Source of the DNA: an uncultured Chloroflexia bacterium
GTDB taxonomy: Bacteria > Chloroflexota > Dehalococcoidia > GIF9 > UBA5629
DNA length: 64,000 nt
Direction of reading: 5' to 3'
Assembly: GCA_963705905.1 (NCBI GenBank)
Contig: OY970123.1
Location: forward strand, 839,921-903,920
Both the position numbers and the translations under genes were made by a program. Below the pieces are notes generated by a model. It was not told where the DNA came from, did not search any database, and saw only the letters and a program-made list of their open reading frames with translations. Positions 20,853 to 56,482 of this stretch are shown piece after piece. Within the stretch, counting starts at the first letter, position 1. Each line of letters begins with the position of its first letter.

Positions 20853-21070
20853 CTTTCAAAGTTCCCGTTATATAGCTACATCATGCAGATCGTGCTTTAA
20901 AACTTCCTGTATTATACTGCTGCTAATGTTGTGTTATCCATTAAACTATCCGTCAATTTATATAATTGTTAGGGTAACTTAATATAGAGAATGTGATATT
21001 TACCCATTTTAACTGAGGATAGATCGTTATTCCTTATTAGGGTGGTCCATATAACTAAGCAGGATTATTG

Positions 21071-21625: not shown

Positions 21626-22973
21626 TGTTCAAGCTACCAGATAGATAGTAATAGCCTAATCCAAAACCAGTTTTCTGTATCTCTTTAGTTAGGGCTGCGG
21701 CATTAGAAACGCGTTTAGCTGTCGTTTTTCCATTAGCACAAGAGATAACGATGATTTCCTTTGGTACCGCATTATTTAGTAAGGTCTCACTATGCGTGGA
21801 CATAAGGATGAATCTATCTTTTTTCATGTGCTCCCGCATAATCAATATTATTTCAGATAGCATATGTGGATGAAGATAATTCTCGGGTTCCTCAATAGCG
21901 AACATATTTTGATTTGTTAAAATGATTGTTATCAATGCTATCCATTTCACTGTACCATCCGACATGGAAGAAAGAGGGAGTATAGTGGGCTTACCGGTAC
22001 CTTTTAGAGTAACTCGAACCTGCAATTGCTGGTCAAATGGATTGTTCGAAACAACGATATTAGATATCCATTCGTTTGCAAGCTGCGTGTATCGCAAAAT
22101 ATTTGCTGTAGAAGCATCACTTCTGGGGATTGCATGCCGATAGGTTGGCAGATACCTATAGGTTGGCAGATAATCGTACTTTTGCCGGTTGACGCCCTCG
22201 TATTTTTGTATCGCGTACAATGTCGAATATAAACCAGAGCCATCTTTACTGACACCTGCTTTTTTAGCACTATCATCTGGCATCTTTGCTTTAGATGGTT
22301 CAATGTTATAGACTTCACCACCTCTGATGTCATTATTAATGGGATAATAGAAGTCACGAATAATCATACTCAAGACAGTAATGACGCTTTGGTCTGGATC
22401 CAGGTTGTCGAGATATTGTATTATCCTTCTTTTAATATCCGCTTTACCATATTTACGTCTCGCATCATAAGGATTATTTAATTCCTTTATTTTTTCGTTG
22501 ATAGCGGAGATTGTAGGCTTGGATTTTGAATTATCATCTACATTTAACGCAATTGCTAAATCGTAATCGCTACTTCGTATCTTGTTTATAGAGTCGACTG
22601 CTCTTAGTTTTAACGATAACTTTTGTTCCGAATAAATTATTGGCTCTCCAGATACGCGTAAAAGTATTCTGAACGAATATTGATAGTATAAATACTTTCT
22701 AGCCTCAAGTTTCACCGTGCCAGTTATCGTTGCACTGATGTTATCCTGATATTCTTTTTCTCCTATTTTCCGAAATATAGTACCTGCACCTCCAGATTTA
22801 CTGATGGCATCTGAAATATGCATATACTGGAGATAACCGAGGAATTCGAAAAAAGAAATAATATTTGTCTTGCCTGATCCATTGGGTCCAACAAGGATAT
22901 TTAGACCCGATTTCAGATCCATTTCGAATTTATGAAGAGTCTTGAAACCGTTTACTTTAATATGTTTAATCAT
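21618..22973 (-). CDS. split ABC-type ATPase (AAA_21/AAA_15 family; OLD/AbiLi/AriA-like)
   Basis: Walker A GPNGSGKT near the N-terminus, long insert, then IEEPENYLHPHM and H-loop LMSTHSE at the C-terminus; 451 aa. Confidence 0.8.
   Translation of the reverse strand: MIKHIKVNGFKTLHKFEMDLKSGLNILVGPNGSGKTNIISFFEFLGYLQYMHISDAISKSGGAGTIFRKIGEKEYQDNISATITGTVKLEARKYLYYQYSFRILLRVSGEPIIYSEQKLSLKLRAVDSINKIRSSDYDLAIALNVDDNSKSKPTISAINEKIKELNNPYDARRKYGKADIKRRIIQYLDNLDPDQSVITVLSMIIRDFYYPINNDIRGGEVYNIEPSKAKMPDDSAKKAGVSKDGSGLYSTLYAIQKYEGVNRQKYDYLPTYRYLPTYRHAIPRSDASTANILRYTQLANEWISNIVVSNNPFDQQLQVRVTLKGTGKPTILPLSSMSDGTVKWIALITIILTNQNMFAIEEPENYLHPHMLSEIILIMREHMKKDRFILMSTHSETLLNNAVPKEIIVISCANGKTTAKRVSNAAALTKEIQKTGFGLGYYYLSGSLNNE
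22139..22174 (-). repeat. in-frame 18-bp tandem duplication inside the ATPase gene
   Basis: tatctgccaacctatagg / tatctgccaacctatcgg encodes YLPTYR YLPTYR. Confidence 0.6.
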
Positions 22974-23340: not shown

Positions 23341-23416
23341 TGGTGCCCCCAAGGGAATTCGAATCCCTGTGTCCAGCTTGAAAGGCTGGTGTCCTAGGCC
23401 TCTAGACGATGGGGGC
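23341..23416 (-). tRNA. tRNA-Glu (anticodon TTC)
   Basis: Reverse complement GCCCCCATCGTCTAGAGGCCTAGGACACCAGCCTTTCAAGCTGGACACAGGGATTCGAATTCCCTTGGGGGCACCA; anticodon loop CTTTCAA, acceptor GCCCCCA/TGGGGGC, encoded CCA. Confidence 0.9.
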
Positions 23417-27395: not shown

Positions 27396-29762
27396 ATGCT
27401 TAAAAGCGGGACGACGGCGGTGGGGCAGCCGGACTCAGCAAGGTTCGCCCGCATAAAGAAAGAGCTGCTCTCCGCCGGCGTTTATCTCTGCCCCGAGCGG
27501 GCCTGCCTGGTAACCGACTTCTTCAGGCGGCATGACGACCCGCGCAAACCGGTGACCGTGCGCAGGGCCGAAGCCCTCAGCTACATCCTGAGCAACAAGT
27601 CGGTGCGCATTTACCCCGACGAGCTTATTGCAGGCAATATCGGCAGCCGCCGCATATCGGCGCTGGTCCAGCCGGAGTTGGCCGGCGTCTTCATGGGCAC
27701 AGAGCTGCTAAGCATAGACCGCCGCAAGACGACACCGCTCCAGTGCTCCTGGCGGGACCGATTGAAGCTGCTGTTGGACGTATTCCCCTACTGGCTCACG
27801 CGCAATATGGCTTTCAGGGCCTTCATGCCGGACATCGGCCGGTTGCTGCGCTACGTGACCGACCAGCTCGACGCCCGTTATTACCTGATAAATGAGGCCG
27901 GCGGCATAGGGCATTTTCTCCCCAACTATGAGAGGATGCTCAATCTCGGTGTCAAAGGATATCTTGACCTTTTCTCTGATAAGGTTGGCCCGGTCTATGA
28001 TGCCGCCCGCATCGCCTGCGAGGGCGTGGTGCGCTATGCAGCAAGGCTGGCGGACGAGGCGGAGCGCCTGGCCGGTGAAGAGAAAGACCCTCACAGGTAC
28101 CTGGAACTCAAGGAGATCGCTCGTATATGTTGTAAGGTGCCTCAGGAACCCGCCCGTACCTTCCACGAGGCGCTGCAGTCCTTGTGGCTGACACATATGG
28201 CGGTCTGCCTGGAAAGCTTGAATTCGGCCATTTCTTTCGGCAGGATCGACCAGTATTTGTATCCTTTCTATGAGCGTGACCTCGCAGAAGGCATACTTAC
28301 ACGGGAAGGGGCGCTTGAACTGCTGCTGTGCTTCACGGCCAAGTGTGCCGAGCACGTATTCCTCATGTCCGAGAATCTGAGCCAGTATCACGGGGGCTAC
28401 CTGGTTGTACAGGCGGCAGTCGTCGGCGGCATGGACCGCGACGGCAACGATGCAGTCAACGACCTGTCATATCTCTTCCTGGACGTTATGGAGCAGGCCG
28501 GGCTGCGGGACCCTAATTACCAGGCACGCCTGCATCGAGGTTCGCCCGAGCCGTTCCTGAGGCGCGCCTGCGATGTGGTCAAGAAGGGCCATGGAGTTCC
28601 CGCCCTGTTCGGTGACGAGGCATGCGTGAAGTCACTGATTGCGCATGGCTACCCGGAGGAAGAGGCTCGCAACTACGGAGTGGTCGGCTGCGTGGAGCTG
28701 GCCCTGCCGGGAAAGAGCTTCTTCTCAACAGATGCGGGGCTGTTCAATCTGCCCATGTGCCTCGAGCTGGTATTAAACAGGGGCCGGAGGATGAAGGGAG
28801 GGCGCCGCGTCGGCGCGGATACGCCCGACCCGGAATGCTTCGAGAATATCGGGCAAGTGATCGAGGCTTTCAGAACGCAGGTCGGTTTTATGCTGGATCT
28901 CATGATCGAGAATTTGCAGGTTATGGAAAAGGGCAATGCGCTGTACCACCCCACTCCATTTTCCTCAATGCTGGTGGACGGTTGTCTGGAAACAGGCAGG
29001 GACGTCAGCGATGGTGGAGCGCTATACAACTCCAGCGGCATACAGGGTGTGGGCGTGGCAGACGTAGCCGACTCCCTGTCAGCTCTTGAGACGGTGGTCT
29101 TTGTGCAGCACCGGTACTCAATGTCCCAGGTCTTGAAGGCACTCAAAAACAATTTCGACGGATACGCTGTCATGCGCGCCGAACTGAATCGTGCACCCAA
29201 GTACGGCAACAATGAGCCTCTGCCGGATGGTCACGCCGGCATCGTGGCAGGCATTTTTCATGCCGCTCTGGCCGGACACCGCAATACCAGGGGCGGCCCC
29301 TATGTGCCGGGCTACTACACCGTCACCTGCCATATAGCCTTCGGCAGGCATACTGCGGCACTGCCCAGCGGCAGGTGGGCGGGCGACCCCTTTGCTCCCG
29401 GCCTGGGTCCATGCAACGGGTGCGACCACCTCGGCCCCACGGCAGTGATGAACTCTACGGCAAGTGTGGACGCCAGCTTATCGCCCAACGGTTACGCCCT
29501 GAACCTGCGTTTCGATCCGGCGACCGTGGCCGGGGAGCGTGGCACCGACATGCTCATGGCACTGACTCAGGGTTTCTTCGAATCGGGCGGGATGGAGGTG
29601 CAGTTTAACGTGCTGGATCCACAGATGCTTGAGGACGCCCGGCGGCATCCCGGGAAGTACCCGGGCCTTGTCGTGAGGGTGTCCGGCTACTGCGCCTACT
29701 TCGATGATTTGCCGGATGCAGCCAAGGGCGAGATCATCGCACGTACACGCTTCACGCCGTAG
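27396..29762 (+). CDS. glycyl radical enzyme (PFL2/glycerol-dehydratase-like clade)
   Basis: 788 aa; C-terminal glycyl radical motif RVSGYCAYF, single-Cys thiyl loop VGCVE; aaaggagg RBS. Confidence 0.85.
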   Translation: MLKSGTTAVGQPDSARFARIKKELLSAGVYLCPERACLVTDFFRRHDDPRKPVTVRRAEALSYILSNKSVRIYPDELIAGNIGSRRISALVQPELAGVFMGTELLSIDRRKTTPLQCSWRDRLKLLLDVFPYWLTRNMAFRAFMPDIGRLLRYVTDQLDARYYLINEAGGIGHFLPNYERMLNLGVKGYLDLFSDKVGPVYDAARIACEGVVRYAARLADEAERLAGEEKDPHRYLELKEIARICCKVPQEPARTFHEALQSLWLTHMAVCLESLNSAISFGRIDQYLYPFYERDLAEGILTREGALELLLCFTAKCAEHVFLMSENLSQYHGGYLVVQAAVVGGMDRDGNDAVNDLSYLFLDVMEQAGLRDPNYQARLHRGSPEPFLRRACDVVKKGHGVPALFGDEACVKSLIAHGYPEEEARNYGVVGCVELALPGKSFFSTDAGLFNLPMCLELVLNRGRRMKGGRRVGADTPDPECFENIGQVIEAFRTQVGFMLDLMIENLQVMEKGNALYHPTPFSSMLVDGCLETGRDVSDGGALYNSSGIQGVGVADVADSLSALETVVFVQHRYSMSQVLKALKNNFDGYAVMRAELNRAPKYGNNEPLPDGHAGIVAGIFHAALAGHRNTRGGPYVPGYYTVTCHIAFGRHTAALPSGRWAGDPFAPGLGPCNGCDHLGPTAVMNSTASVDASLSPNGYALNLRFDPATVAGERGTDMLMALTQGFFESGGMEVQFNVLDPQMLEDARRHPGKYPGLVVRVSGYCAYFDDLPDAAKGEIIARTRFTP

Positions 29763-42908: not shown

Positions 42909-43367
42909 TTACTGAATCAAACCTGTTCTGGGATCACCCCACGTGCTGAAATCCATTACTGCATCGGAGCCATCCGTAAACCAGCCTTTAATTATGTAAG
43001 TGTCATCCGTCTTGACAATAGGATGCCCGAACCACGTGGCCGTGTTCTCGACGGTTGTGCTGTTCGGGAGCAGGACCGAGTATATAAACGCATCTGCCGA
43101 ATTCGGATCGAAACCTGCCGTTGCCCACTGCCGCATGTAATCCATCCTGTCGGCAGTGTCGGACTGGCTCGAAAGGAAGGTCTGATTGATATACCCGTTA
43201 GTATATATATCCGCTACATACCTCAGTGCCTGGTTCTCGGTGACGGCCATATTTGACTTCAGCGCATATACCGTAATAGCAGCCGGCCCCTGCGCCGAAA
43301 CAATTGAAGGTGTAACAAACAGGATCAACAACAGTGCCAGGTTAAGCAGGACAACCAATTTTTTCAT
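42909..43367 (-). CDS. small secreted protein, hypothetical
   Basis: Signal peptide MKKLVVLLNLALLLILFVTPSIVSAQG; 152 aa. Confidence 0.45.
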   Translation of the reverse strand: MKKLVVLLNLALLLILFVTPSIVSAQGPAAITVYALKSNMAVTENQALRYVADIYTNGYINQTFLSSQSDTADRMDYMRQWATAGFDPNSADAFIYSVLLPNSTTVENTATWFGHPIVKTDDTYIIKGWFTDGSDAVMDFSTWGDPRTGLIQ

Positions 43368-43718: not shown

Positions 43719-44507
43719 ATGCAGTTTAAAACTTTACTCTTTGACATAGCCGACAGTGTCGCCACGATCACTCTGAACCGTCCCGAAGCCAACCACGCCA
43801 TCGACCTGCAAATGGCCAAAGACCTGTGTTACGCCGCTATGCACTGCAGCGAGAACTCTGCCGTACGGGCAATTCTGATCACTGCAACCGGCCCCGTATT
43901 TTGTGCAGGCGGAGATTTAAAGGCCATGGCCGGTGAAGTCGAAAAAACTCCCGGTCTTCTCAAGGAAATGTCCAGCTACCTCCACCTTGCCATCTCACGC
44001 CTGACACGCGGGGCGCCGCCGGTCGTCATTGCAGTCAACGGTATTGCTATGGGCGCCGGCATGAGCCTTGCCTGTGCGGGCGATATAGCAGTGGCCGCCC
44101 AGTCTGCCACTTTTGCGGTAGCCTATACGCAGGTCGGACTCACGCCGGACGGGGGCCTCACATATTTCCTTCCGCGCCTGGTCGGGCTAAGGCGGGCCTC
44201 AGAGCTCGTTCTGACCAACCGGCGTTTGTCCGCCAAAGAAGCGCTGGATCTCGGTCTCGTCACCGAAGTGGTGCCTGATGCTGAGCTGATGAACCGTGCA
44301 CGGACGATCACCGGGCAACTGGCTGCGGGTGCAACCCGGGCTTACGGCGCCGCCCGCAAGCTTATCCATGGCGGCCTCTCATCAACGCTGGAAACGCAGA
44401 TGGAGTTTGAAAGCCAGTCCATCGTGGATATGGCGCGTACGGCAGACGCTCATGAAGCATTCACCGCTTTCGCCGAGAAGCGCAAGCCGAAATTCCAGGG
44501 TAAGTGA
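43719..44507 (+). CDS. enoyl-CoA hydratase/isomerase family protein
   Basis: Start at the ATG after a ggagg RBS; crotonase motifs TGPVFCAGGDL. Confidence 0.8.
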   Translation: MQFKTLLFDIADSVATITLNRPEANHAIDLQMAKDLCYAAMHCSENSAVRAILITATGPVFCAGGDLKAMAGEVEKTPGLLKEMSSYLHLAISRLTRGAPPVVIAVNGIAMGAGMSLACAGDIAVAAQSATFAVAYTQVGLTPDGGLTYFLPRLVGLRRASELVLTNRRLSAKEALDLGLVTEVVPDAELMNRARTITGQLAAGATRAYGAARKLIHGGLSSTLETQMEFESQSIVDMARTADAHEAFTAFAEKRKPKFQGK

Positions 44508-44616
44508 TAAGATCGCCGGTGAGGTTTACAGACCAGGACGGGGCGTAATAACCATTTTCGCTATTACGCCGCATCCGAAATGTCAATTTAGGGGTGTGAC
44601 AGACCCCGCCTTCCTT

Positions 44617-45789
44617 TTATAGAGCGATTGCCCCTTTTTTCAGCATCTTAGTGGGCTCGAACCACTTTATTCCTGTCTTCTTGGCTATGGCCTCGCATCT
44701 CTCGGCCACCTTGTCCCAACCCATTTTCTGTCCCAGCGCGAACGGGCCCGCAGCTCGGCCGCTGCCGTACACCATGGCCATATCTATCTCGGCAGCACTC
44801 TTGGCTACACCCTGCTCCAGCAGCTTGGTGCCTTCGTTCACCTGGATGGCCACCATGTCGGCCAGGTCGAAGTTAGGCTCGGTCTTGGTCAGGTCGATGT
44901 TGGGCCTGTTACCGCCCGGCCACTCGAAGTTGCCTTTGCCGGTTTTCTTGCCCAACTCGCCGGCCTCGACCTTCTTGGCCAGCCAGGGCCGCGGAGCGAA
45001 GTCCTTGGTGAGAGTGGCTGCATAGTATTTGGCGCCGTTAAACGATATATCTAGCCCGGAGTAGTCCATCGTCTCGAACGGGCCCATCGGCGCTCCCGTC
45101 GACCTTACCTTGGCGTCCACGCCCTCAGGGTCAACCATGCCCTTCTCCCTCAGCCATGAGAGGTACATGCCGGAAGGTGCGTTCATGCGGTTGAAGATGA
45201 AGCCCGGCGTATCTTTCTCAACTCTGACAACCACCATCGGGCCCCTGAAGTTCTTCCAGCCTTTTACCAGGTCGTAGGCCACGTTCATGGTCTCGTCGGA
45301 GGTCTTGTCGCCGCGGATAACCTCGACCAGGGCCATCATGGCCGGCGGATTGAAAAAGTGCACGCCGCACACTTTGTCCTGGCGTTTGGTGGCCGAACCG
45401 ATCTTGGTAATGCTCATAGTGGAAGTATTGGAGGCCAGTATGGCATGCTTGGGAGCCGCCTCGTCCATTTCTTTAAATGTCTTTTGTTTAAGGTCCAATA
45501 TTTCGGGGGCCGCCTCGATGGCGAAGTCCGCGTCTTTCACGGAGTCCTTGAGCACAATGAAGCCCTTGATACTGCCCATGATCTTGTCCATGGCTTCCTG
45601 CGTCATCTTCTGCTTGGAGACCTGCTTGCCCAGGCTGTCCTTGATCTTCCCGATACCCTTATCCACAAATTCCTGCTTGATATCATAGAGGTTAACCTTG
45701 TATCCGGCCATGGCCGCCAGTTCGCCTATCCCATGGCCCATGTCGCCGGCGCCGATCATGGCGACCGTCTTGACTTCTTCAATCTTCAT
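44617..45789 (-). CDS. 3-hydroxyacyl-CoA dehydrogenase (long form)
   Basis: VAMIGAGDMGHGIGE NAD-binding motif, HFFNPP motif; 390 aa. Confidence 0.85.
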   Translation of the reverse strand: MKIEEVKTVAMIGAGDMGHGIGELAAMAGYKVNLYDIKQEFVDKGIGKIKDSLGKQVSKQKMTQEAMDKIMGSIKGFIVLKDSVKDADFAIEAAPEILDLKQKTFKEMDEAAPKHAILASNTSTMSITKIGSATKRQDKVCGVHFFNPPAMMALVEVIRGDKTSDETMNVAYDLVKGWKNFRGPMVVVRVEKDTPGFIFNRMNAPSGMYLSWLREKGMVDPEGVDAKVRSTGAPMGPFETMDYSGLDISFNGAKYYAATLTKDFAPRPWLAKKVEAGELGKKTGKGNFEWPGGNRPNIDLTKTEPNFDLADMVAIQVNEGTKLLEQGVAKSAAEIDMAMVYGSGRAAGPFALGQKMGWDKVAERCEAIAKKTGIKWFEPTKMLKKGAIAL

Positions 45790-45876
45790 TTGATCAACTC
45801 TCCTTTAAAGTTTTTCTTTGCTCCAGCGAAGCATTATAGCAGGGAACGGCGCTCTGTTGAAGAAGCAGGTCAAAGA

Positions 45877-45914
45877 TATAGCTTTGCCCTCCTCTGTCCC
45901 TTAAGCTAAAATCA
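45877..45914 (+). repeat. direct repeat A flanking AT-rich insertion
   Basis: tatagctttgccctcc-tctgtcc-cttaagctaaaatc; matches 48922-48957 (tatagctttgccctcc-ccacctc-cttaagctaaaatc). Confidence 0.55.
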
Positions 45915-45995
45915 CAATTTTTGTCTTACACATAGATTTACCGAGCATCCGCCTCTGTCTACTAAATGAAGCAATTTAGCGTAATGCTAATAATG

Positions 45996-47365
45996 CTATT
46001 GTTTTGGCTGAAAGGCTTCTATCTTTAAATGACTAATTTTAATCAATTGAAGGACTGCATAATCCTTTTGCATATCAAAATAAAAATCCCCACGAAATGG
46101 AGGATCGATAGAATGATCGATTATTTCATGGCAAGTTGCCATCATAAATGGAATTAACTCATTACAGATACGACAAGGTAGTCCAATTACTTGACCATCC
46201 GGATGCTGCTCCATTACATGTATATAGTAATCACGAATCTCCCCACTAGCGATTAACTCACCACAACTGCATTTCAGTCGACTATTTTTGTCAGCAACGG
46301 TGGCTTCGTTAAGATAATTTGGACCATACCTAAAATCCCATAGCGAAGCCAGTTTGGATTCAGTCTGCCCAGACGTTAGTTGGTAACTCCAATTGCCACG
46401 AGATAAACTCATGCGAAGCGATTTCCAAATGTTCCATGCATTCGGTTTCAAATTTTGTCCAGCCACTTTAGCAGTAAAAATACGTGCGGCAATACCAGCA
46501 GCAAGATCAGCTATCTGGATACCAATCGAACTAGCGGATATTTCTTCAGAACACGCAATAAAATTATGCATCGGCGATGGCGATCTGGATAAAAATTCAT
46601 AAGTAAAATCTAGTATTTCGCCAAATTGGGTGTCCTGATCTCTTATTAATCGAGCCTTTAAATTGTGTGATCCGAGAGCAGAATCCAGAAAAATCAATGA
46701 GGGGAAAAATGCAGTAACCTGACAATTGGACAAATGTATATTTTTAGGAGCGCCTTCTAAACGCTCTCCAAAACGGTAAATATCATCCAACCCAGACATA
46801 ATGACATGGGCTATATGAACGACGCGTTGATCTGGATGCAAACTTAATTGTCTACTAAGAATAAGGCCAATACGTTTAAGCTCGGGAACATCATCGGAAT
46901 GACACGCCCGTAAAAACCTTGTCAATAATTCGCTGGAAATTGATGAATAGATAACATTATGGAAAAAACGCCTGAACTCTATAGACATCATATACCTATC
47001 TACCTTCGGGTTGTGATCGGGATCTAAATAGGTTGAGGCAATCCGGACACAAATCTCAAATTTTTTCTCAACAATACTTATATAGATAGTGGTTCCAGCT
47101 TCATATACTAGCTGCATGATCTTTGACCAACGTCTCCTTCCTCTGGAAGATTGCCATAACTTAACAGAACTCAATTCGTAGGATAGTGGAAGACATTCTT
47201 TCTCCAAAAAAGAGATAGCTGGGATGCAAGTAGAGTTTCTTGATTCTTCGTTAACAACACCCAGGCATATACGAAAAATAAATCAGTTTTAGAGAGTAAA
47301 TCGGAGCCGGTATTGCCGGATTCATCGCAATAGATTGTTGCTATCTCAGCAGTTATAGGCCTCAT
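45996..47365 (-). CDS. DUF3800-family protein with Cys-rich C-terminal extension; apparent frameshift in a T6 run near 47195
   Basis: N-terminal IYCDESGNTG motif in ORF 47171-47365, QIADLAAGIA motif in ORF 45996-47207. Adding one T to tctcttttttgg merges the frames. AT-rich. Confidence 0.5.
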
Positions 47366-47395
47366 ATACAGCGCAAAGTATTAGATGCAAAATAA

Positions 47396-48004
47396 TTACG
47401 ATTTTTGATCATTCGATATGGACTCTAAAAAGCTGGCTAAACTAAGTGCGAGATCCACATAACTGGCAGCTTGTTCCCAAGATATATTGAATTGAGCCTC
47501 ATGAACAGCCTGATTCCGCAGTTTCCGAAGACGATCATACAAGTCTCCAGTTCCATACGGAAGTTCGCCTGATAATGTTAGTTTATGCAATACATCGTGT
47601 TCTGCCTGCATACCCTTCGATGGTATTTCATATTTCAACGCCAATTTCCCTAAAGCATTTTCTACCGAGCGCCAAGCCTCAGCTACTGCGGCTCTAGGAT
47701 AATCATAGGCAAGATCAATTAGATTCTGGGATGGAGAAACAGAGATTTCGATTGGCTGCCTAGCAGATGGCGTTGGAGGCAATTTCAATGCCTTTGCCTT
47801 ATCCTCGGCGAATCTGAGATCACGGCGAAATTTGATTCCCAAATCCTTATAACGCAATTCCTCAATAGCTGCAATAGCTTGGGCAAGTGGTTTCCTAAAA
47901 ATCAATACTATTGTCAGGACTGTCAAAGGCCAAGCTAGTACCGACACGAAATTCAAAATTAAATGTGCAATTCCCATATTAAATCCACAACTTAATAGAT
48001 TCAA
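47396..48004 (-). CDS. membrane-anchored DUF4145 (HEPN-like) protein
   Basis: N-terminal TM helix, C-terminal LRKLRNQAVHEAQFNISWEQA matching the DUF4145 R-x4-H signature. Confidence 0.45.
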   Translation of the reverse strand: MNLLSCGFNMGIAHLILNFVSVLAWPLTVLTIVLIFRKPLAQAIAAIEELRYKDLGIKFRRDLRFAEDKAKALKLPPTPSARQPIEISVSPSQNLIDLAYDYPRAAVAEAWRSVENALGKLALKYEIPSKGMQAEHDVLHKLTLSGELPYGTGDLYDRLRKLRNQAVHEAQFNISWEQAASYVDLALSLASFLESISNDQKS

Positions 48005-48029
48005 ATAATATGACCCGGTAGGTTAAGAT

Positions 48030-48842
48030 TTATATGTTCTCAATTTGATTCGCTGCTTTCGCTAGCTTGTCCTTGGTCTGGCCAAGGTTAACTACGGATT
48101 TTAGATGATTCTGCCTTTTCTCACGAGCGATATACCAGTCTTCAAATAATCTTTCAATCAGACCAATTAGCAATTCCGCTTCATTGGGTTCAATATCTAT
48201 AATAATATCTACCTTTTTTGCCATATGAGCGCCAATATTACCTACCTTGCGAACCGCATCTATCGCATCCCACGTAAGCGGATCCACTTTATCCTGGATC
48301 GCCTCTATTTCTTTTTTTAGAGATGGACGTTCCAGTCCCCAATAATCACGTATCATGCCTTGCAAGCAGCGCCGTGCCAAAGTTGCTGACGATTTCGGGC
48401 TCAATTCTTTGATAAGACATGCCTCCCGATAATCAGCCAAAATAGGGGTGGGTATATAATCAGGAAAAATTTTTGCCCCAGAAGGTGGGACCAATTGCCA
48501 TGTATGCAACTCTTCTCCACTATGAGGTCTTGATCCGCTATAGCGCTCCACCTTAGAAAGACGAATTGTTAAAGTGAACCTCCTACAATCAGGATTTGGG
48601 CAAACGACAAACGCCCAATTTAAACATCGCTCTCCATCGGAATTCTCAATGTCTAAAAATACCTCACCTGTGGTCCTATCTTCATGTGTAACCGTTGTAG
48701 GTCTATTGCAATAAGGACAGGTCCAAGGGAACTTTCTGGTTGCAGGCGGAGGTATCAGGAACCCATTCATAGTTGAATTATACACCATGCGATAATCGAC
48801 AAAAAGATAAAGAATGAATAAAATCAGGATGCTGATAGCCAT
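48030..48842 (-). CDS. zinc-ribbon + DUF4145 (HEPN-like) protein
   Basis: CPYCNRPT...CPNPDCRRF ribbon; DUF4145 core LARRCLQGMIRDY ... AIDAVRKVGNIGAHM. Confidence 0.5.
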   Translation of the reverse strand: MAISILILFILYLFVDYRMVYNSTMNGFLIPPPATRKFPWTCPYCNRPTTVTHEDRTTGEVFLDIENSDGERCLNWAFVVCPNPDCRRFTLTIRLSKVERYSGSRPHSGEELHTWQLVPPSGAKIFPDYIPTPILADYREACLIKELSPKSSATLARRCLQGMIRDYWGLERPSLKKEIEAIQDKVDPLTWDAIDAVRKVGNIGAHMAKKVDIIIDIEPNEAELLIGLIERLFEDWYIAREKRQNHLKSVVNLGQTKDKLAKAANQIENI

Positions 48843-48921
48843 AAATTTACTATGTTTTAATTTGATTCAATATACAAAAATCAAATCCAAATACCGATTG
48901 TTCAGACTAAGTTCATCTAGC

Positions 48922-48957
48922 TATAGCTTTGCCCTCCCCACCTCCTTAAGCTAAAAT
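48922..48957 (+). repeat. direct repeat B flanking AT-rich insertion
   Basis: See repeat A; the two copies bound a ~3.0-kb low-GC segment. Confidence 0.55.
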
Positions 48958-48963
48958 CTTGCT

Positions 48964-49194
48964 GTGGATTTAGCAGGCCTGGGCAAAATAATCCTGATCT
49001 TCGGCGGTGTTATCATCGTGGTCGGGCTGCTGTTCATCTTTGCACAGCAAATCCCCTTCTTCGGCAAGCTGCCGGGAGATATATTCATCAAGAAGGACAA
49101 TTTCTCCTTTTATTTCCCCATAGTTACCTTCATCATTATCAGCATAGTGCTCACCATCGTGATCAACGTTATCCTACATTTCCTCAACAAATAA
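48964..49194 (+). CDS. DUF2905-like small membrane protein
   Basis: 76 aa, two TM helices, GTG start; precedes queA as in many bacteria. Confidence 0.45.
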   Translation: MDLAGLGKIILIFGGVIIVVGLLFIFAQQIPFFGKLPGDIFIKKDNFSFYFPIVTFIIISIVLTIVINVILHFLNK

Positions 49195-49198
49195 CCGC

Positions 49199-50206
49199 AT
49201 GAAGCTCTCCGATTTCGACTACGACCTGCCACCCGCATTCATCGCACAACATCCCCTGGAGCAAAGGGACCATTCCAGGCTGATGGTCGTGGACCGTAAA
49301 TCACATACCATCGAGCACCGTCATTTCTACGATCTCGTAGATTATGTCAACAGCGGCGATACGCTGGTCTTCAACAACAGCCGGGTCATCCCGGCCCGCC
49401 TCAAAGGTATCATTTCCGGCAGCCAGAGACAGGCAGAAATACTCCTGCTGAAACAGCTGTCCCCCGATACATGGGAAGCTCTGGTGAGGCCAGGACGCAA
49501 ATTGTTTCCGGGCTTCAGAATCCTGTTCACAGGCGATCAGTTCGCAGCGATTATAGAAAAAAGAGAAGCAGGGATCAGGATCGTAAGGTTCTCCGACCCC
49601 GAAGGACTGGACAAGCTGGGCGAGATGCCCCTGCCGCCCTATATCAAAGCCAAGCTTCAGGATAAGGAACGCTACCAGACGGTCTACTCGTCCGTTAAAG
49701 GCAGCGCCGCCGCGCCTACCGCCGGGCTGCATTTCACCCCCGAGCTGCTGGACAAGCTGCGCACTAAAGGCGTCAACCTGGCCTTTGTCACCCTGCACAT
49801 CGGGCTGGATACCTTCCAACCTGTCCGCGCCGAAGACCCGTCGCACCATAAAATCCACACTGAGTTCGGCTACGTCGACGAGGAGACCGCGCTGCTGCTG
49901 ATCAGGACCAGGAAAGCGGGAAAACGCGTCATCGCAGTCGGGACCACCTCCGTGCGCTTGATCGAAGCTGCCTCCCAGGCGGGAGAGGTATTGCCGTTCT
50001 GCGGCCAGGTCGGACTTTTCATACTGCCCGGCTACCGCTTCATAACCACCGACGCTATCATTACCAACTTTCACTTACCGAAATCGACGTTGCTGATGAT
50101 GCTCTCGGCCTTTGCAGGACGCGAATTCCTGCGGGATTGCTACGAAAAAGCCAAAGAAACTGGCTACCGCTTCTACAGTTTCGGCGATGCCATGCTGGTA
50201 AAATAG
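49199..50206 (+). CDS. queA: S-adenosylmethionine:tRNA ribosyltransferase-isomerase
   Basis: MKLSDFDYDLP N-terminus and overall QueA pattern; 335 aa. Confidence 0.9.
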   Translation: MKLSDFDYDLPPAFIAQHPLEQRDHSRLMVVDRKSHTIEHRHFYDLVDYVNSGDTLVFNNSRVIPARLKGIISGSQRQAEILLLKQLSPDTWEALVRPGRKLFPGFRILFTGDQFAAIIEKREAGIRIVRFSDPEGLDKLGEMPLPPYIKAKLQDKERYQTVYSSVKGSAAAPTAGLHFTPELLDKLRTKGVNLAFVTLHIGLDTFQPVRAEDPSHHKIHTEFGYVDEETALLLIRTRKAGKRVIAVGTTSVRLIEAASQAGEVLPFCGQVGLFILPGYRFITTDAIITNFHLPKSTLLMMLSAFAGREFLRDCYEKAKETGYRFYSFGDAMLVK

Positions 50207-50260
50207 TAAAACGCCGCCGCTTTGACAATCATATCCGCAAATTCGTAAAATTCCGTATCT

Positions 50261-50698
50261 ATGAGCGCCCTCAATAAAGTCCTGCTGGCGGTACTTTCGG
50301 CTGCTATCCTGGTTACCCTGGGCCTCATTATCTACCTTCAACTAACCCCGGTGCCTTCCGACAGGTTCACCGAATTTTACCTGCTGAACGCTGAGGGAAA
50401 GGCCGCCGATTACCCATCCGAGGCCCATGCCGGCATGCCGGTAACCGTTACGCTGGGAGTGATAAACCATGAGGGCAATACGGAAACTTACAGCATAAAC
50501 GTGGTCTCGAACGGAACAGCAATCCAATCCGTCAGCGTACCCGCCCTGGCACAGGACCAGAAATGGGAAGGGAAAACCAGTTTTACGCTGAGTACAGCGG
50601 GCGATAACCAAACGGTGCAGTTCTATCTATTTATGAATAACGATGCGAAGCCGCATATCAATGACCCCTTGCTTCTCAGGCTAAATGTTACCAAGTAG
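50261..50698 (+). CDS. hypothetical membrane-anchored protein
   Basis: N-terminal TM helix then beta-rich domain; 145 aa. Confidence 0.4.
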   Translation: MSALNKVLLAVLSAAILVTLGLIIYLQLTPVPSDRFTEFYLLNAEGKAADYPSEAHAGMPVTVTLGVINHEGNTETYSINVVSNGTAIQSVSVPALAQDQKWEGKTSFTLSTAGDNQTVQFYLFMNNDAKPHINDPLLLRLNVTK

Positions 50699-52595: not shown

Positions 52596-53140
52596 AACCC
52601 GTCATTGCGAGCGAAGCGAAGCAATCCTTTGTACGAAGGCAAAAGGCCGGTAGCAATGACAAAAGATTGCCACGTCAGCCCCCTGCGGGGGAAATTCCAA
52701 ATTCCAAATTCCAATGGACCACGTCATTGCGAGCGAAGCGAAGCAATCCTTTGTGCGAAGGCGCGAGGCTTGCAGCAATGACAAAAGATTGCCACGTCGC
52801 CCTGTGGGGCTCCTCGCAATGACGTGCCAATATAAAGCAGAAGGAACAGGTTCCCTCTTCAACGCCTTCTTTTTTGTGAAAATGTAGGGACGGGTCTTGA
52901 GACCTGTCCGAAAAGGCGGGCGCACCTGAAGGTACGCCCCTACACTACATGCGAGGGCGGGCACCTTAACCCGTCATTGCGAGCGAAGCGAAGCAATCCT
53001 TTGTGCGAAGGCGCGAGGCTTGCAGCAATGACAAAAGATTGCCACGTCAGCCCCCTGCGGGGGAAATTCTAAATTCCAAGCTCCAAATTCCAACTGACCA
53101 CGTCATTGCGAAGGTGAACTCCTAACCCGTCATTAAAAGC
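52596..53140. repeat. cluster of structured ~100-bp dispersed-repeat units
   Basis: Three full copies of cgtcattgcgagcgaagcgaagcaatcctttgt.cgaaggc...caatgacaaaagattgccacgtc (52600, 52727, 52973) plus partial copies. Each is followed by a ccccctgcggggg hairpin and aaattcca x3 in two cases. Confidence 0.65.
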
Positions 53141-53588
53141 CCAATCGAAGGAACCAAGCACCTGCGTCCAGAGGGCGTTGAAGAGGGGCTGCAAAGCCCC
53201 TCTTAGAAAACCACCCCTCTCCCTTTAAAGGGGGTTCTCTTATATCTCTATTGATACTCATATTATCGACCTGCTATGATTAATACATAGGGAGTTATCT
53301 ATGGATAAGTATGAAGATAATATTGAAACCGAGGCAATGAAAGAAGCTGCCAAACGAGAAAAACGGCTCAAAATATCCAATGTTGAAAATGAAGTAAACA
53401 AAGCTGCAAAAGCCAACGCACTCAATAATTTACTTCTTAATGAGCTAGATAGTGCGATTGAGCGTAGGCATTTCAAAGGCAAGAAGAAGTAAATTGATTT
53501 ACAAGGCTTATTTATGAAGCGAGATATTATTGTAGGTGTAATTGCTATAGCATTCCTCGCCTTGTTGCAATTGCTACATGTTATTGAT

Positions 53589-53933
53589 TTAGTTGGAATT
53601 ATCACGTTTATCTTGCACCCCGATGTCAATACGCTGGCTGACTTTACCAAATCCCTGCTTGTGGGCTTGGTTATTGTCATAATTATTGGAGCCTTCATAA
53701 AGCTTATCGTAGATATCTCTCATGGGAATAGAAGTCGAAGAGGCCATTGATTTCTTAATTTCTCTGACTCGATATAACAGGTATAAATCTATCATAATCA
53801 CTGAAGCACATAACCATCCCAATTGCCAGACAATTATTCCTGTAATTAGCATTGAGAAGATTATCATGTAACTCACGATATGTTGAGTACGATATGATAA
53901 TTTCGAAGCTTTGCTAGCAATATAGTCAAACAT
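53589..53933 (-). CDS. small membrane protein, hypothetical (coupled to transposase)
   Basis: Starts 1 nt after the transposase stop, gagg RBS, two predicted TM helices. Competing plus-strand ORFs 53301-53492 and 53514-53750 cannot be excluded. Confidence 0.35.
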   Translation of the reverse strand: MFDYIASKASKLSYRTQHIVSYMIIFSMLITGIIVWQLGWLCASVIMIDLYLLYRVREIKKSMASSTSIPMRDIYDKLYEGSNNYDNNQAHKQGFGKVSQRIDIGVQDKRDNSN

Positions 53934-53934
53934 G

Positions 53935-54993
53935 CTATTTGTAAAACCTCAATGATTTAATCTCTTGAATTATTGGCTGTGGCCTTCGCCCGCCACCCTT
54001 GCTCTTTGGGACATGCTTAATGCCAGTGCGTCTTTCCGTTAAGAGCCTACGCTTGTGTAATCTTGAATCAGCCTGTTTCCTTTCCCTATCTGTAAACCTG
54101 ACATATGGCAAAGGTGAAACATCAAACGAAGCTCTTGGCAATGTCAATTTAGCCATTTCGGGAGTGCATCTTATCAATACTTCCCAATCTTTATATGGGA
54201 ATTGTATTTGAGCCTTATTTGCAGGCGTAGTGCCGATCGTTTCATGTGGTCGGAAATAGTTATAATTTACTAGGAAGCCGTCAAGTAGCAACTGCGCCGA
54301 TTCAGGGCTTTTAAGGTCTCTCATGACTTTTGTGCGTTCTTTGATAGTGCCCTGCATCCGCTCGATGATGTTGTTGTTCGGCCTAGCTGTGAATTTCTTG
54401 ACTTGCAAATGCTTTGCTTTGTCTCCAAAGGTATGCCGGATGCCGTAGACATATGCTTCCATATGGTCGGTCATAATAACTTTAGGTATACGACCAGTTC
54501 GAGCATAGGCTTCCTTCATAACCTCGTGGACATCTTCTACTCTGCGAGTCAGAGATAAAAACGAAGCTATCAAGAACCTCGTCTTGACATCAATCACATC
54601 AAGAAGCCAATATTGTTTCCCTGCTACATTTATTACGGTCTCATCGGCTAACCAAACATAACCTACTTCTGGCTTATATCGATTGGTTATATTGACCGCA
54701 TCTTTGGTAAACCTTTCTACCCAGTTATAGATTGCAAAATCGGATAGGTCTAAACCATATATTTGTTTTAGTTCTTGCTTAATGTCATTGACCGACATGC
54801 CCTTGTAAAACATCGAGACCGCCGCCGAGACCGCACTGGCGGGCGTTTTCATGTGGATTAACGCATCTTTAAGATTGAACCTGCGCTTGCAGGATCGGCA
54901 CAGGTAGTATTGCTCACCTACGTTAGTGCCATCCTTCACGATGTCATCTGAATTGCAGTATTTGCAGGCAATCTCGCTCACGAGAAATTCCAT
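53935..54993 (-). CDS. DDE transposase, IS6/IS26-like with N-terminal zinc ribbon
   Basis: CKYCNSDDIVKDG...YLCRSCKRRF ribbon; DDE region WLADETVINVAGKQYWLLDVIDVKTRFLIASFLSLTRR ... VIMTDHMEAY ... NNIIERMQGTIKER. Confidence 0.7.
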   Translation of the reverse strand: MEFLVSEIACKYCNSDDIVKDGTNVGEQYYLCRSCKRRFNLKDALIHMKTPASAVSAAVSMFYKGMSVNDIKQELKQIYGLDLSDFAIYNWVERFTKDAVNITNRYKPEVGYVWLADETVINVAGKQYWLLDVIDVKTRFLIASFLSLTRRVEDVHEVMKEAYARTGRIPKVIMTDHMEAYVYGIRHTFGDKAKHLQVKKFTARPNNNIIERMQGTIKERTKVMRDLKSPESAQLLLDGFLVNYNYFRPHETIGTTPANKAQIQFPYKDWEVLIRCTPEMAKLTLPRASFDVSPLPYVRFTDRERKQADSRLHKRRLLTERRTGIKHVPKSKGGGRRPQPIIQEIKSLRFYK

Positions 54994-55092
54994 CCTTCAA
55001 TTCTATTAAATGAGATACCACATTTGTAAGGGTTATAAATCAATCTGTCATATATATCTGATATAATACGCATGACGTTGCGGAGGTGTGAG

Positions 55093-55443
55093 ATGCCAGC
55101 GGAAAGAAGATGGTACAAATTCACTCGTGAGAATGTCGAAAAACTTCCCAAAGGTAAAATCGGCGTATACGTATTGGCTAATGAGAACAAGAAACCAATG
55201 CGTACCGGAAGCAGTACGAGCGAAAATGTTGGCATTCGTGGCCGTCTAATTTCGCACATAATTCATAATACCTGTCCAGAAGCTAAATACTTTAGATTTG
55301 CCTATGCCAATTCTCCCCAAGAAGCACTTAATATGGAGGCTAATGCGTATAATCATTACATTCGACAAAATCCTGTCGAAATGTCAAAACATACCAAACG
55401 CATCCCTCGCAAACGTGAAATAGATGACTTCTGGTTATTTTAG
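55093..55443 (+). CDS. GIY-YIG-like small protein (passenger in IS-like element)
   Basis: ggagg RBS 8 nt upstream of the ATG; GVYVL ... RTGSS ... RGRLISH spacing resembles the GIY-(10-11 aa)-YIG-R-H pattern. Confidence 0.35.
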   Translation: MPAERRWYKFTRENVEKLPKGKIGVYVLANENKKPMRTGSSTSENVGIRGRLISHIIHNTCPEAKYFRFAYANSPQEALNMEANAYNHYIRQNPVEMSKHTKRIPRKREIDDFWLF

Positions 55444-55771
55444 TTCTTTATTTTGGTAATCTTGACATTGCTTCGGAATAATGGCTTTGCCATCTTTGCA
55501 TGGCGATCACAGAAAGGCAAACCCGCCATTATAATTGTTGCTGGCTTTTGACACGTGTGCCCGTTGCCAAGTTCCATCTGACATTTTTTCATTTTCCCTC
55601 TCCTTTTAGTTTTTATTTATCGAGAGATTCTACTTATACTCTTATCAATAGAGATATAAGAGAACCTTAAAGGGAGAGGGCAGGGTGAGGGTAGAAAGCT
55701 TGAAGCAATGACGTGTCAGCATAGCCGGTTATATTGACTAAGCATCATATTCCAGATACTCTTTTAAACAA

Positions 55772-56482
55772 ATGAATCATAATAATCATTCTCCCACAAT
55801 CATTGCTGTAATCCCCTGCCTGAATGAAGAAAGGTTTATCGGCGGCGTTGTAGCCAGGGCCGTAAAATACGTAAACCGGGTGATAGTCGTGGATGATGGC
55901 TCCAGCGATCAAACTTCGCAAGAAGCTATTAAGGCCGGAGCCGAGGTCATCCGGCACCCGGCCAGCCGGGGCGCCGGAGCTGCGACCAAAACAGGACTGG
56001 AAGCTGCGCTCAAGAGCGGCGCAGACATTATCGTCACTTTGGACGGCGATAACCAGCATGACCCCGATGAAATCCCTAACGTTCTCAAGCCTTTTGCCAA
56101 CGGTGAAGCTGACCTCGTCATAGGGTCACGCTTTCTTAAAGAGGCCTGCGTGCCCTTTTTCCGCAAGCTCGGAATCGATTTAATCACCGGGCTTTATAAC
56201 GCCGGACACAAAGAGAAGATCGTGGACGGGCAGAGTGGTTTCCGCGCCTATAACAGGAGGGCGGCAGAGGCCATGAACATCACCTACCCTGGCTTCGGAT
56301 TCAGCATCCAGACCCTGGTACAGGCACGCAAAAAAGGGCTGAAAATTACAGAGGCGCCCATATCCTGCATTTATCACGATGCAGGTTCGACCGAACACCC
56401 GTTTGTACATGGCCTGACCGTTGCGCTGGCCGTTATTAAAATCAGAATGAGGGAAGAATTCTTCAAAACAGGTAAAAGCTGA
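55772..56482 (+). CDS. family 2 glycosyltransferase (polyprenol-phosphate sugar transferase-like)
   Basis: IIAVIPCLNEE ... VIVVDDGSSD ... DGD pattern. Confidence 0.8.
   Translation: MNHNNHSPTIIAVIPCLNEERFIGGVVARAVKYVNRVIVVDDGSSDQTSQEAIKAGAEVIRHPASRGAGAATKTGLEAALKSGADIIVTLDGDNQHDPDEIPNVLKPFANGEADLVIGSRFLKEACVPFFRKLGIDLITGLYNAGHKEKIVDGQSGFRAYNRRAAEAMNITYPGFGFSIQTLVQARKKGLKITEAPISCIYHDAGSTEHPFVHGLTVALAVIKIRMREEFFKTGKS

Follow-up and report, generated by a model that had tools for sequence, protein, structure and literature searches.

RAZR (formerly PD-T7-4), a ring-activated zinc-finger RNase of E. coli, is a single-gene abortive-infection RNase with experimentally established anti-phage activity (Nature 2026, PMC13017515; PDB 9y9c). 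Membrane-associated HEPN domains carrying a strictly conserved WP signature have been described computationally, and such HEPN-TM proteins have been suggested to degrade RNA in response to a stimulus (Anantharaman et al., 2013, PMC3710099). DUF3800 proteins occur as accessory nucleases of retrons and CRISPR loci (PMC7736814, PMC10910872, PMC12669027), among them the retron type VII effectors and the TPR-DUF3800 proteins of Cas12a2/Cas12a3 and VI-F loci. Relatives of all three lie side by side in the window, by which we mean the whole stretch of 64,000 nucleotides that was analyzed.

They occupy an islet of ~3.0 kb in the short divergent-promoter region between the gene for 3-hydroxyacyl-CoA dehydrogenase (3HCDH) and DUF2905-queA (Table 1). 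The GC content of the islet is ~0.40 (0.37–0.44 within the segment) against 0.52–0.60 in the adjoining genes, and the fall of about 15 points coincides exactly with the interval between two direct repeats. The ORF content consists of three genes, here called A, B, and C, which are co-oriented on the minus strand with operon-like tight spacing. The B–C gap is 30 nt; the A–B gap measures 52 nt if gene B starts at its homology-supported ATG (47977) and shrinks to 25 nt only if an upstream TTG is used. An earlier sequence-only reading of the window had proposed an insertion of low GC content and foreign composition, bounded by direct repeats and flanked by 3HCDH and DUF2905/queA. The GC and repeat comparisons agree with this description, and profile matches confirm the flanking genes. 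The same reading had counted three minus-strand genes with gaps of 25 and 30 nt; all three are present and the 30-nt gap stands, but gene C is split between two frames by a 1-nt deletion and the 25-nt gap holds only for the TTG start.

Table 1. Features of the islet and its flanks (positions within the window)
Feature	Position	Strand	Remarks
3HCDH, host flank	44617..45789	-	
Promoter-like site of 3HCDH (putative role)	45833..45860	-	TCAACA-16-TATAAT, TG-extended, 10/12 matches
Left direct repeat, putative copy of the DUF2905-queA promoter	45874..45913	+	TTGCCC-17-TAAAAT at 45884-45912
Gene C 3' part, 403-codon ORF	45996..47207	-	DUF3800 C-terminal half (Q284-x2-D287) and two C2H2-type zinc fingers
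A-run splitting gene C	47205..47210	-	A6 (T6 on the coding strand), one base short relative to seven assemblies
Gene C 5' part, 64-codon ORF	47171..47365	-	D14-E15 catalytic motif (IYCDESGNTG)
Gene B, WP-TM HEPN protein, 193 aa	47396..47977	-	TM helix, long helix and C-terminal DUF4145-like HEPN
Gene A, RAZR/PD-T7-4-like, probably 246 aa	48030..48770 (ORF to 48842)	-	Cys4 zinc ribbon and DUF4145 HEPN
Right direct repeat, putative promoter copy now ahead of DUF2905-queA	48919..48958	+	TTGCCC-17-TAAAAT at 48929-48957
DUF2905 and queA, host flank	48964..50206 (DUF2905 48964-49194; queA 49199-50206)	+	

Gene A probably begins at the ATG at 48770. Its homologues are 229–245 aa long, and their alignment starts at residue 26–40 of the 270-aa ORF. 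The protein matches Pfam DUF4145 (5.9e-11), PADLOC PD-T7-4 (4e-10; residues 33–245 of the ORF on profile positions 7–189, with the ribbon covered), and the RAZR structure 9y9c (2.7e-7 as a single sequence, 6e-10 as a profile). Its arginine and histidine fall on the catalytic R146 and H154 of RAZR (R-K-V-G-N-I-G-A-H on R-I-V-G-N-Q-A-V-H). At least 90% of 32 homologues keep the ribbon cysteines (C18, C21, C57, and C62 in the 246-aa numbering), and the Cys4 set and the R174-x7-H182 motif of the HEPN domain are nearly invariant in this group. Judged by these matches, gene A belongs, as a distant member, to PD-T7-4/RAZR, a described and mechanistically solved single-gene system. Both are single proteins of ~220–250 aa with an N-terminal Cys4 zinc ribbon, a linker, a C-terminal DUF4145 HEPN domain, and the same R-x7-H catalytic spacing, and both have relatives on prophage or viral contigs and on plasmids. 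The gene A ribbon is longer, however, with 35 residues between the knuckles, and RAZR works alone, whereas gene A is followed by a gene for a membrane-anchored HEPN protein in three loci. Identity to E. coli RAZR is ~31% over the linker and HEPN part, and direct alignment of the two ribbons gave no significant match; for these reasons the trigger specificity of gene A could differ from that of RAZR.

Gene B starts with a single TM helix (hydrophobic residues 5–27 are legible in the sequence), and its AF2 model has a long N-terminal helix at residues 3–63. W16-P17 is invariant in 53 sequences. The motif R151-x2-R154-N155-x3-H159 fits a C-terminal HEPN fold with R-x4-6-H; R154 is invariant across the 53 sequences, and N155 and H159 are each kept in at least 90% of them. 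The DUF4145-type HEPN domains of A and B align in register. Gene B alone falls under the Pfam threshold for DUF4145 (0.046), and 36 of the 53 relatives match it. By these features, gene B belongs to the family that combines a WP-transmembrane helix with a DUF4145-like HEPN domain, which has thousands of relatives (5,189 representatives). It shares with that family the N-terminal WP TM helix, a predicted cytoplasmic DUF4145-like HEPN domain, and R-N-x3-H. The family is known from computational description only, gene B itself scores below Pfam thresholds, and the 2013 paper does not mention the pairing with a RAZR-like gene seen here. No gene B relative was found on viral contigs or in phage genomes, and the extensions of longer B-family proteins contained no fusion to A-like or other domains. 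In one locus (L022), the gene B relative adjoins a DUF433/DUF5615 pair.

Gene C is intact, at 456 aa, in seven other assemblies (L002, L003, and five more), which carry A7 where the window has A6; the A7 was confirmed base by base in three of the seven. The 2.47-Mb contig of the window is presumably a long-read assembly, given its size. The intact relatives and this suggested origin together make the split probably a long-read or assembly error, which we favor over a programmed or phase-variable frameshift. In its intact form (P0001), the protein reaches 33.5 bits for Pfam DUF3800 (cut-off 21), and each of the two fragments in the window stays under that cut-off. Among 20 homologues, D14, E15, Q284, and D287 are invariant, as are the residues of both zinc fingers (C366, C368, H383, and H388; C398, C401, H413, and H418). 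The predicted fold is RNase H2-like, with RNase H2 and H3 as the best structural matches, and it carries a 150-residue helical insertion. As modeled, gene C is a member of a rare DUF3800 subfamily (about 22 full-length members) that joins an RNase H2/H3-like fold to two C2H2-type zinc fingers. The N-terminal DE, the C-terminal QxxD, and the RNase H2-like predicted fold are shared with the DUF3800 proteins of retron type VII and of the Cas12a2/Cas12a3 and VI-F loci. Unlike those proteins, gene C stands alone, with no RT, Cas, or TPR partner, and has the helical insertion and the two fingers.

No DUF3800-associated RNA motif was found near gene C: Rfam gave no match at E ≤ 1 in window positions 44000–50500 and none at E ≤ 0.1 in five C-family loci, a search that covers motifs DUF3800-I to -XI provided that Rfam 15 carries them. 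The sole Rfam match was an unrelated SRP RNA. Structured RNA motifs of the DUF3800 type, described by Weinberg in 2017, are reportedly not strictly required for the DUF3800 family. One marginal match to gene C was found on viral contigs. Neighborhoods of gene C relatives are of the defence kind and contain ThsB-TIR/HD/Mrr, type I R-M with Prok-E2/JAB/ThiF, and SIR2/HerA genes.

The sequence-only reading had anticipated much of this. The zinc ribbon and DUF4145 core of gene A, the TM segment and HEPN-like R-x4-H of gene B (at family level for DUF4145), and the DUF3800 domain with a Cys-rich tail in gene C were all correct calls, and its assignment of the genes to the defence-island type agrees with the gene A family and with the neighborhoods of relatives. 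It had also named PADLOC as a check, which returned PD-T7-4 for gene A; PADLOC and NCBIfam gave nothing meaningful for gene B or the intact gene C, apart from a weak PDC-M04A match (3.6e-4) for P0018 alone. Its remark that it could not name the arrangement as a described system needs correction for two of the genes, given the PD-T7-4 and 9y9c matches of gene A with the catalytic R and H aligned, and the publication of the gene B architecture in 2013. A literature search found no published defence test of a B or C family member.

The direct repeats are 40 nt long and identical at 34 of 40 positions (85%), among them one 16-mer and one 15-mer that match exactly in register. Shuffling the 6-kb region 200 times yielded 12-mer-seeded 40-nt pairs with at most 27/40 matches, and both repeat blocks are unique within the 64-kb window. 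Five of the six mismatches fall in a central 6-nt block, which corresponds to the spacer of a promoter-like sequence. The repeat is a putative duplicated σ70-like promoter of DUF2905-queA. The GTG start of DUF2905 lies 6 nt past the −10 box of the right copy, which suggests a leaderless transcript, and in two relatives (L026 and L028) the positions of the −35 and −10 hexamers and their 17-nt spacing are retained directly before the DUF2905 start. The left copy now points at the 3' end of gene C. The repeats had previously been reported as near-identical, at 45877–45914 and 48922–48957; they are real, but near-identity overstates 85% and those coordinates are 1–3 nt off. We read both copies as the putative promoter of the downstream operon rather than as anonymous att-like sequence.

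The insertion site was compared across relatives. Those with a 94–96% identical 3HCDH have none of genes A, B, or C there. L026 carries other cargo, 5 kb in length and AT-rich, that encodes an Mrr-STAND NTPase, two DUF488 proteins, and DuOB (PDC-M45A, 2e-42); its flank homology stops at window position 45868 and restarts at 48927, with a single copy of the repeat adjoining DUF2905. L028 has a rearranged glycyl-radical enzyme gene at the site and carries a HEPN/HEPN/NACHT islet on the opposite side of 3HCDH. On the 3HCDH side of the islet, L026 and L028 are homologous to the window between 45790 and about 45862–45868, and the promoter-like site of 3HCDH falls in a 79-nt stretch conserved among relatives. 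Cargo at this position varies within the lineage, which makes it a hotspot; two close relatives hold other cargo. No empty site (exact pattern of left flank, one repeat, and right flank) was found in the metagenome or genome contig collections, and there was no clean one among the protein-anchored relatives L026–L029, of which L027 is rearranged and L029 too short upstream. The search for an empty site, suggested by the sequence-only reading, instead turned up relatives with different cargo at this position. Insertion is argued from composition and from these relatives rather than from a before/after pair.

In their AT-rich defence cargo, which differs among close relatives within conserved flanks, the islet and its counterparts are like known defence islands and integration hotspots between core genes. 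Unlike the usual hotspots, the islet is tiny (3 kb), has no integrase or tRNA target, and is bordered by a putative duplicated promoter rather than by a gene 3' end. Set against integrase-mediated genomic islands with attL and attR, it has flanking direct repeats, but no empty site with one copy was recovered from relatives and no site-specific recombinase is encoded or adjacent; none of its three ORFs is a recombinase gene, and the nearest transposase (53935–54993) belongs to another low-GC patch at a distance of 5 kb. An integron cassette was rejected, as the 30–52-nt gaps hold no imperfect palindromes and there is no attC or IntI, and so was a prophage remnant, as the islet contains no phage genes.

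The A-B-C triad recurs in only one close relative, in the same order, in a different genomic context, and at 66–71% identity. Gene C is found with neither A nor B nearby in five other contexts beyond that relative. Gene A homologues occur without B in L127–L130 (60% identity) and on 8 viral contigs, and gene B relatives occur without A in L022–L024 (three copies of one context), in L025, and on 4 plasmids. The triad is thus not a conserved system; it combines a few defence genes of known kinds and does not make up a new three-gene system. Deeper conservation is limited to the A-B pair. A and B are adjacent, in the same order and orientation and with gaps of 33–52 nt, in three contexts (the window, the ERZ1426824 contig, and L131), among which gene A is as little as 55% and gene B as little as 43% identical and the third gene and all flanks differ. 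In L131, the third gene is a different, HEPN-like one; the order of A, B, and a third gene is kept there across 43–55% identity, which argues that at least A and B could depend on each other to some degree.

We interpret the locus as a horizontally acquired, co-oriented three-gene defence islet in a promoter hotspot, made of separable nuclease modules in which A and B recur as a pair and C is autonomous, and put the probability of this reading at roughly 0.62. The analysis shows the composition, the repeats, the domain and fold assignments, the conserved catalytic residues, and the gene contexts; from there on, all activities, the triggers, promoter function, and the integration route are inferred. 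Insertion would have parted DUF2905-queA from its promoter, and a second copy of ~40 nt at the other end of the islet would keep the operon expressed; that second copy would account for the direct repeats. The structure fits integration of the Campbell type, in which a circular intermediate enters at the promoter; the route is speculative because the islet has no integrase. By homology to RAZR, the zinc ribbon of gene A would dock on ring-shaped phage assemblies such as portals, and the curved oligomer that results would activate the HEPN RNase, so that cellular and phage RNA are cut and the infection is aborted. Gene B is predicted to be a membrane-tethered RNase that answers an envelope-level signal. 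Gene C would be a nuclease of RNase H2/H3 fold, with an intact acidic motif set, whose zinc fingers guide it to its target nucleic acid, possibly RNA:DNA hybrids or structured nucleic acid from phages. A and B may cooperate, and C would be an autonomous add-on.

Two alternatives tie the genes more closely together. A and B could form an obligate two-gene system, in which a RAZR-type sensor RNase acts with a membrane HEPN partner, for example through HEPN-HEPN hetero-oligomers or with the partner as a membrane-localized second effector, and C is an unrelated neighbor. Their adjacency in three contexts despite different third genes and flanks, and their HEPN domains aligned in register, point this way; yet both families are large, with more than 4,000 A-family proteins, and mostly occur without each other, E. 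coli RAZR acts alone (PMC13017515), no A-B fusion is seen among longer B-family proteins, and three loci are a small sample that may go back to one inherited mini-island. We hold an obligate pair to be unlikely; it is possible but doubtful, as a broader claim, that the RAZR-type proteins of Chloroflexi function together with a WP-TM HEPN protein as a conserved pair. To join all three genes in one integrated defence system, as the sequence-only reading had implied, is very improbable: the tight, co-oriented, operon-like spacing and the second triad are outweighed by the solitary C genes, the different third gene of L131, and the fact that every family is widespread or autonomous by itself.

Other readings reassign the function of the genes. 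On one, they act as RNases of the stress-response or toxin type, for dormancy induction or as addiction modules, or are simply decaying cargo. Stimulus-dependent RNA degradation as proposed for HEPN-TM proteins (PMC3710099), the L022 neighbors of gene B, and the frameshift in the window's assembly would suit this. The frameshift is absent from the seven other assemblies, though, catalytic residues are conserved in A, B, and C, relatives have many known defence genes in their neighborhoods, and the gene A family has direct experimental anti-phage evidence (PMC13017515), all of which leave a non-defence role improbable. We give scarcely any credence to the proposal that gene C is not, or not only, a defence nuclease but an RNase-H-fold zinc-finger recombinase or transposase, which would mobilize small cassettes with A and B as passengers and leave imperfect direct repeats of ~36–40 nt at cassette ends. 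It would explain why repeats bound both the window's islet and an unrelated cassette in L016, each with a C-family gene and neither with a classical integrase; in an all-against-all blastn of flanks, these two repeat pairs were the only conserved non-coding sequence beside C-family genes. But seven of the nine C-family loci have no flanking repeat above shuffles, the best structural matches of gene C are RNase H2/H3 and not integrases, and DUF3800 is known from accessory nucleases of retrons and CRISPR systems (PMC7736814, PMC10910872, PMC12669027). Promoter duplication accounts for the window's repeat, whose copies differ by a substitution block, unlike a fresh target-site duplication, and L026 has unrelated cargo at the same site without a C gene.

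A defence islet with separable modules, the reading that we prefer, does not overturn current understanding. This is an ordinary, well-formed defence islet whose modestly novel parts are the pairing of A with B and a DUF3800 protein with zinc fingers. Its gene A extends the range of RAZR-type sensor RNases to Dehalococcoidia. To our knowledge, phage-host biology is almost unexplored in the phylum to which these bacteria belong, and its members are uncultured or slow-growing. The candidates are cheap to clone: a recurrent pair of RAZR-like and membrane-HEPN genes, and a DUF3800 nuclease of a rare kind, which stands alone, bears two C2H2 zinc fingers, and could provide a first biochemical handle on a domain also present in retron type VII and Cas12a2/Cas12a3 loci. 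The locus also suggests that a small defence islet can enter a divergent promoter region without silencing the neighboring operon, since the promoter appears to have been duplicated.

The low-GC segment between the 3-hydroxyacyl-CoA dehydrogenase (3HCDH) gene and DUF2905-queA is a small acquired defence islet made of known kinds of parts: a distant homologue of the E. coli zinc-finger RNase RAZR (formerly PD-T7-4; gene A), a member of the WP-TM HEPN family (gene B) and a rare zinc-finger variant of DUF3800 (gene C). The activities of all three are putative, drawn from homology and predicted folds. The sequence-only reading had described direct repeats, low GC, three minus-strand genes and the flanking 3HCDH, DUF2905 and queA genes, and this observation was confirmed as a whole, except that a frameshift splitting gene C had been missed. 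The repeats are real (34/40 positions identical, with exact matches of 16 and 15 nt in register); both blocks occur nowhere else within the 64-kb window, and when the 6 kb around them was shuffled 200 times, the top seeded 40-nt pair reached 27/40. GC is 0.37–0.44 between the repeats versus 0.52–0.60 in 3HCDH and queA, and three minus-strand ORFs fill the segment. The interpretation was supported in part: the defence-type islet of acquired DNA stood, but gene A is of a known kind, the three genes are not a conserved triad and the repeats are read as a duplicated promoter. NCBI attributes the protein B cluster to a Dehalococcoidia bacterium MAG. The source gene caller for L001, an ENA contig (ERZ25039519 contig_1910, 2.47 Mb), recorded gene A as a product of only 85 aa and gene C as one of 331 aa; because its DNA is identical to that of the window, where the A ORF is intact, the source-record annotation of this AT-rich islet is unreliable.

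Both repeat copies contain TTGCCC-17 nt-TAAAAT, and five of their six mismatches fall in the spacer. Between the right copy and the DUF2905 GTG lie 5 nt, which puts 6 nt between the -10 hexamer and the start codon. Since relatives keep hexamers at these positions with the same spacing directly before DUF2905 (TTGCCC/TAAAAT in contig L026, TTGTAC/TAAAAT in contig L028), we read the repeat as a putative DUF2905-queA promoter that insertion duplicated. From the left copy it is ∼23 nt to a divergent promoter-like site of 3HCDH. The 3HCDH/DUF2905 site is a lineage-specific hotspot, because L026 and L028 (3HCDH 96% and 94% identical) hold other content there. In L026, flank homology ends at window position 45868 and resumes at 48927, around a 5-kb cargo (GC 0.35–0.41) encoding an Mrr_cat-nSTAND1 NTPase, two DUF488 proteins and a DuOB protein (PADLOC PDC-M45A, 2e-42). 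In L028, DUF2905 and 3HCDH are separated by a glycyl-radical enzyme gene with 87% identity to the copy in the window, which marks this position as a rearrangement breakpoint. DUF2905 of L026 is cut off after ∼17 codons, and KaiC/KaiB-like and histidine-kinase genes come next, reflecting either a rearrangement or a MAG mis-join.

An empty site in related genomes, which the sequence-only reading had suggested looking for, was not found by an exact-pattern scan of metagenome and genome collections. Because the islet is without a recombinase gene, we only infer that a circular intermediate would have integrated at the promoter. The RNase-H-fold zinc-finger protein of gene C might itself take part in mobility, an explanation to which we give a low probability. 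It stays alive because a second C-family locus, L016, is, like the window islet, bounded by direct repeats above shuffled controls: its C homologue (42% identity) stands by itself in a lower-GC cassette of 1.63 kb with a unique 36-nt repeat (31/36 identical). These were the only two such cases among nine C-family loci tested. Insertion with promoter duplication remains our preferred reading.

Coordinates of the islet, of compared loci and of other features
Sequence	Positions	Feature
Window	45600-49300	Region identical to L001
Window	45874-45913	Left direct repeat
Window	48919-48958	Right direct repeat
Window	45833-45860	Promoter-like site of 3HCDH
Window	47205-47210	A-run in gene C
Window	48771-48842	Hydrophobic 24-codon N-terminal extension of gene A ORF (MAISILILFILYLFVDYRMVYNST), absent from homologues
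Window	27396-29762	Glycyl-radical enzyme gene
Window	19848-22973	Second low-GC island (GC 0.37-0.43)
Window	23341-23416	tRNA-Glu
Window	53000-56000	Low-GC patch
Window	53935-54993	IS-type transposase ORF (DDE_Tnp_IS240/rve + InsA zinc ribbon)
Window	42909-43367	152-codon ORF in low-GC patch (∼0.40)
L001	6832-7089	Gene A product as called
L016	6840-8503	C-family cassette
L026	2913-7921	Cargo at hotspot
L028	5336-8000	Rearrangement breakpoint
L028	9171-13998	Islet (GC 0.33-0.42) between 3HCDH and enoyl-CoA hydratase genes; two HEPN-like genes, DUF4062-NACHT NTPase
L131	5742-7118	Two ORFs after the RAZR-like gene, omitted from public-record gene calls

Gene A matched Pfam DUF4145 as anticipated (E = 5.9e-11), and also phrog_1305. 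That no described system could be named did not hold for this gene, which matched PADLOC model PD-T7-4 (E = 4e-10, residues 33–245) and PDB 9y9c (E = 2.7e-7 as a single sequence, 6e-10 with a 32-sequence profile). The 24 chains of 9y9c, titled 'DUF4145 domain-containing protein', fit the 24-meric RAZR-Gp77 ring described in the available text of PMC13017515, where the PDB code does not appear. RKVGNIGAH of gene A aligns over RIVGNQAVH of RAZR, so that its R and H fall on catalytic R146 and H154, at which alanine substitutions abolish defence (PMC13017515). The four cysteines of the zinc ribbon and the R-x7-H motif are kept in at least 90% of homologues; the family (more than 4,366 matches, typically 229–245 aa) extends to viral contigs and plasmids. 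Over 137 aligned positions (counted by hand) gene A is only ∼31% identical to E. coli RAZR, and no significant alignment was obtained between the two zinc ribbons; this makes gene A a distant member, and its trigger may be unlike that of RAZR. Homologue lengths and alignment starts indicate translation from the ATG at 48770 (or 48788), not 48842. TATAAT lies 6 nt upstream of the ATG at 48770, and because the -10-to-start distance is the same at DUF2905, both transcripts may be leaderless.

Word-indexed search found only four relatives of gene B; an exhaustive search with a profile raised this to 5,189 cluster representatives, the best-scoring 150 being mostly full-length matches of 185–200 aa. 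The proposed DUF4145/HEPN assignment was borne out at family level only: gene B by itself is below threshold for DUF4145 (0.046) and HEPN_RiboL-PSP, but 53 members match DUF4145 (36/53, best 5.5e-9), HEPN_RiboL-PSP (19/53) and HEPN_Swt1 (13/53). W16, P17 and R154 are invariant, and N155 and H159 at least 90% conserved. The architecture matches exactly the membrane HEPN family of Anantharaman et al. (PMC3710099), proposed there to degrade RNA at the membrane inner face upon surface stimuli. Profiles of A and B align across their HEPN halves with motifs in register (hhalign E = 1.3e-4, probability 54%).

Gene C is present in the window as two ORFs (64 and 403 codons) in different frames. In a base-by-base three-way alignment the sole window indel relative to database loci L002 and L003 was in an A-run (A6 in the window, A7 in the others), and in blastn each of the seven short-read or NCBI assemblies of the islet locus showed this one gap against the window; a homopolymer error of the window assembly is the likeliest explanation. 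The A7 version encodes an intact 456-aa protein, P0001, which exceeds the Pfam DUF3800 gathering score (33.5 versus 21 bits), upholding that assignment. A search of 5.8 billion proteins gave only ∼22 full-length relatives, with identities as low as 42%. In twenty of these, D14-E15, Q284-x2-D287 and two C2H2-type sets (C366, C368, H383, H388; C398, C401, H413, H418) are invariant; gene C represents a rare DUF3800 subfamily with zinc fingers. These findings agree with DUF3800 as an RNase H2-like fold and retron type VII effector (PMC7736814); it is also an accessory of Cas12a2, Cas12a3 and VI-F loci (PMC10910872, PMC12669027, bioRxiv 2026.01.16.699850). Eleven structured RNA motifs lie close to DUF3800 genes (Weinberg et al., 2017); an Rfam search of the islet and five C-family loci matched no family.

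As one arrangement, A-B-C recurs only on a 34-kb contig (ERZ1426824; C 71%, B 66% identical), in the same order and adjoining SIR2_2 and DUF87/HerA genes. Gene C occurs alone in five other contexts, one beside ThsB-TIR, HD and Mrr genes, another beside type I R-M and Prok-E2/JAB/ThiF genes and three with mixed or housekeeping neighbours; HMM scans of every ORF in these loci found neither A nor B. Gene B occurs alone beside a DUF433/DUF5615 pair, beside a glutamate-kinase gene and on four plasmids, and gene A in four loci (L127–L130, 60% identity) and eight viral contigs. Because the genes mostly occur apart, the triad is not a conserved system and gene C is a module of its own. Three contexts share the A-B pair. 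In L131 (Chloroflexi RBG_13_50_10), an A homologue (55% identity) is directly followed by a B-family ORF (E = 1.7e-62, 43% identical); the third gene, of 252 codons with a sub-threshold DUF4145 match, differs from C, and all three lie within a 2.2-kb islet (GC 0.33–0.39). The WP-TM HEPN family (described computationally) and the RAZR/PD-T7-4 type were already known; the modest novelty is the recurrent RAZR-like and TM-HEPN pair and the candidate DUF3800-C2H2 protein.

Other low-GC patches were seen in the window. The island beside tRNA-Glu, with genes for a TIR_2-domain protein, a DUF4276 protein and an AAA_21/AAA_15 ATPase, is probably a further defence islet, located at a tRNA gene. The IS-type transposase, 5 kb from the A-B-C islet, showed no connection with it. 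The 152-codon ORF between the FHA-domain and enoyl-CoA hydratase genes has no Pfam match and is conserved in other assemblies of the islet locus.
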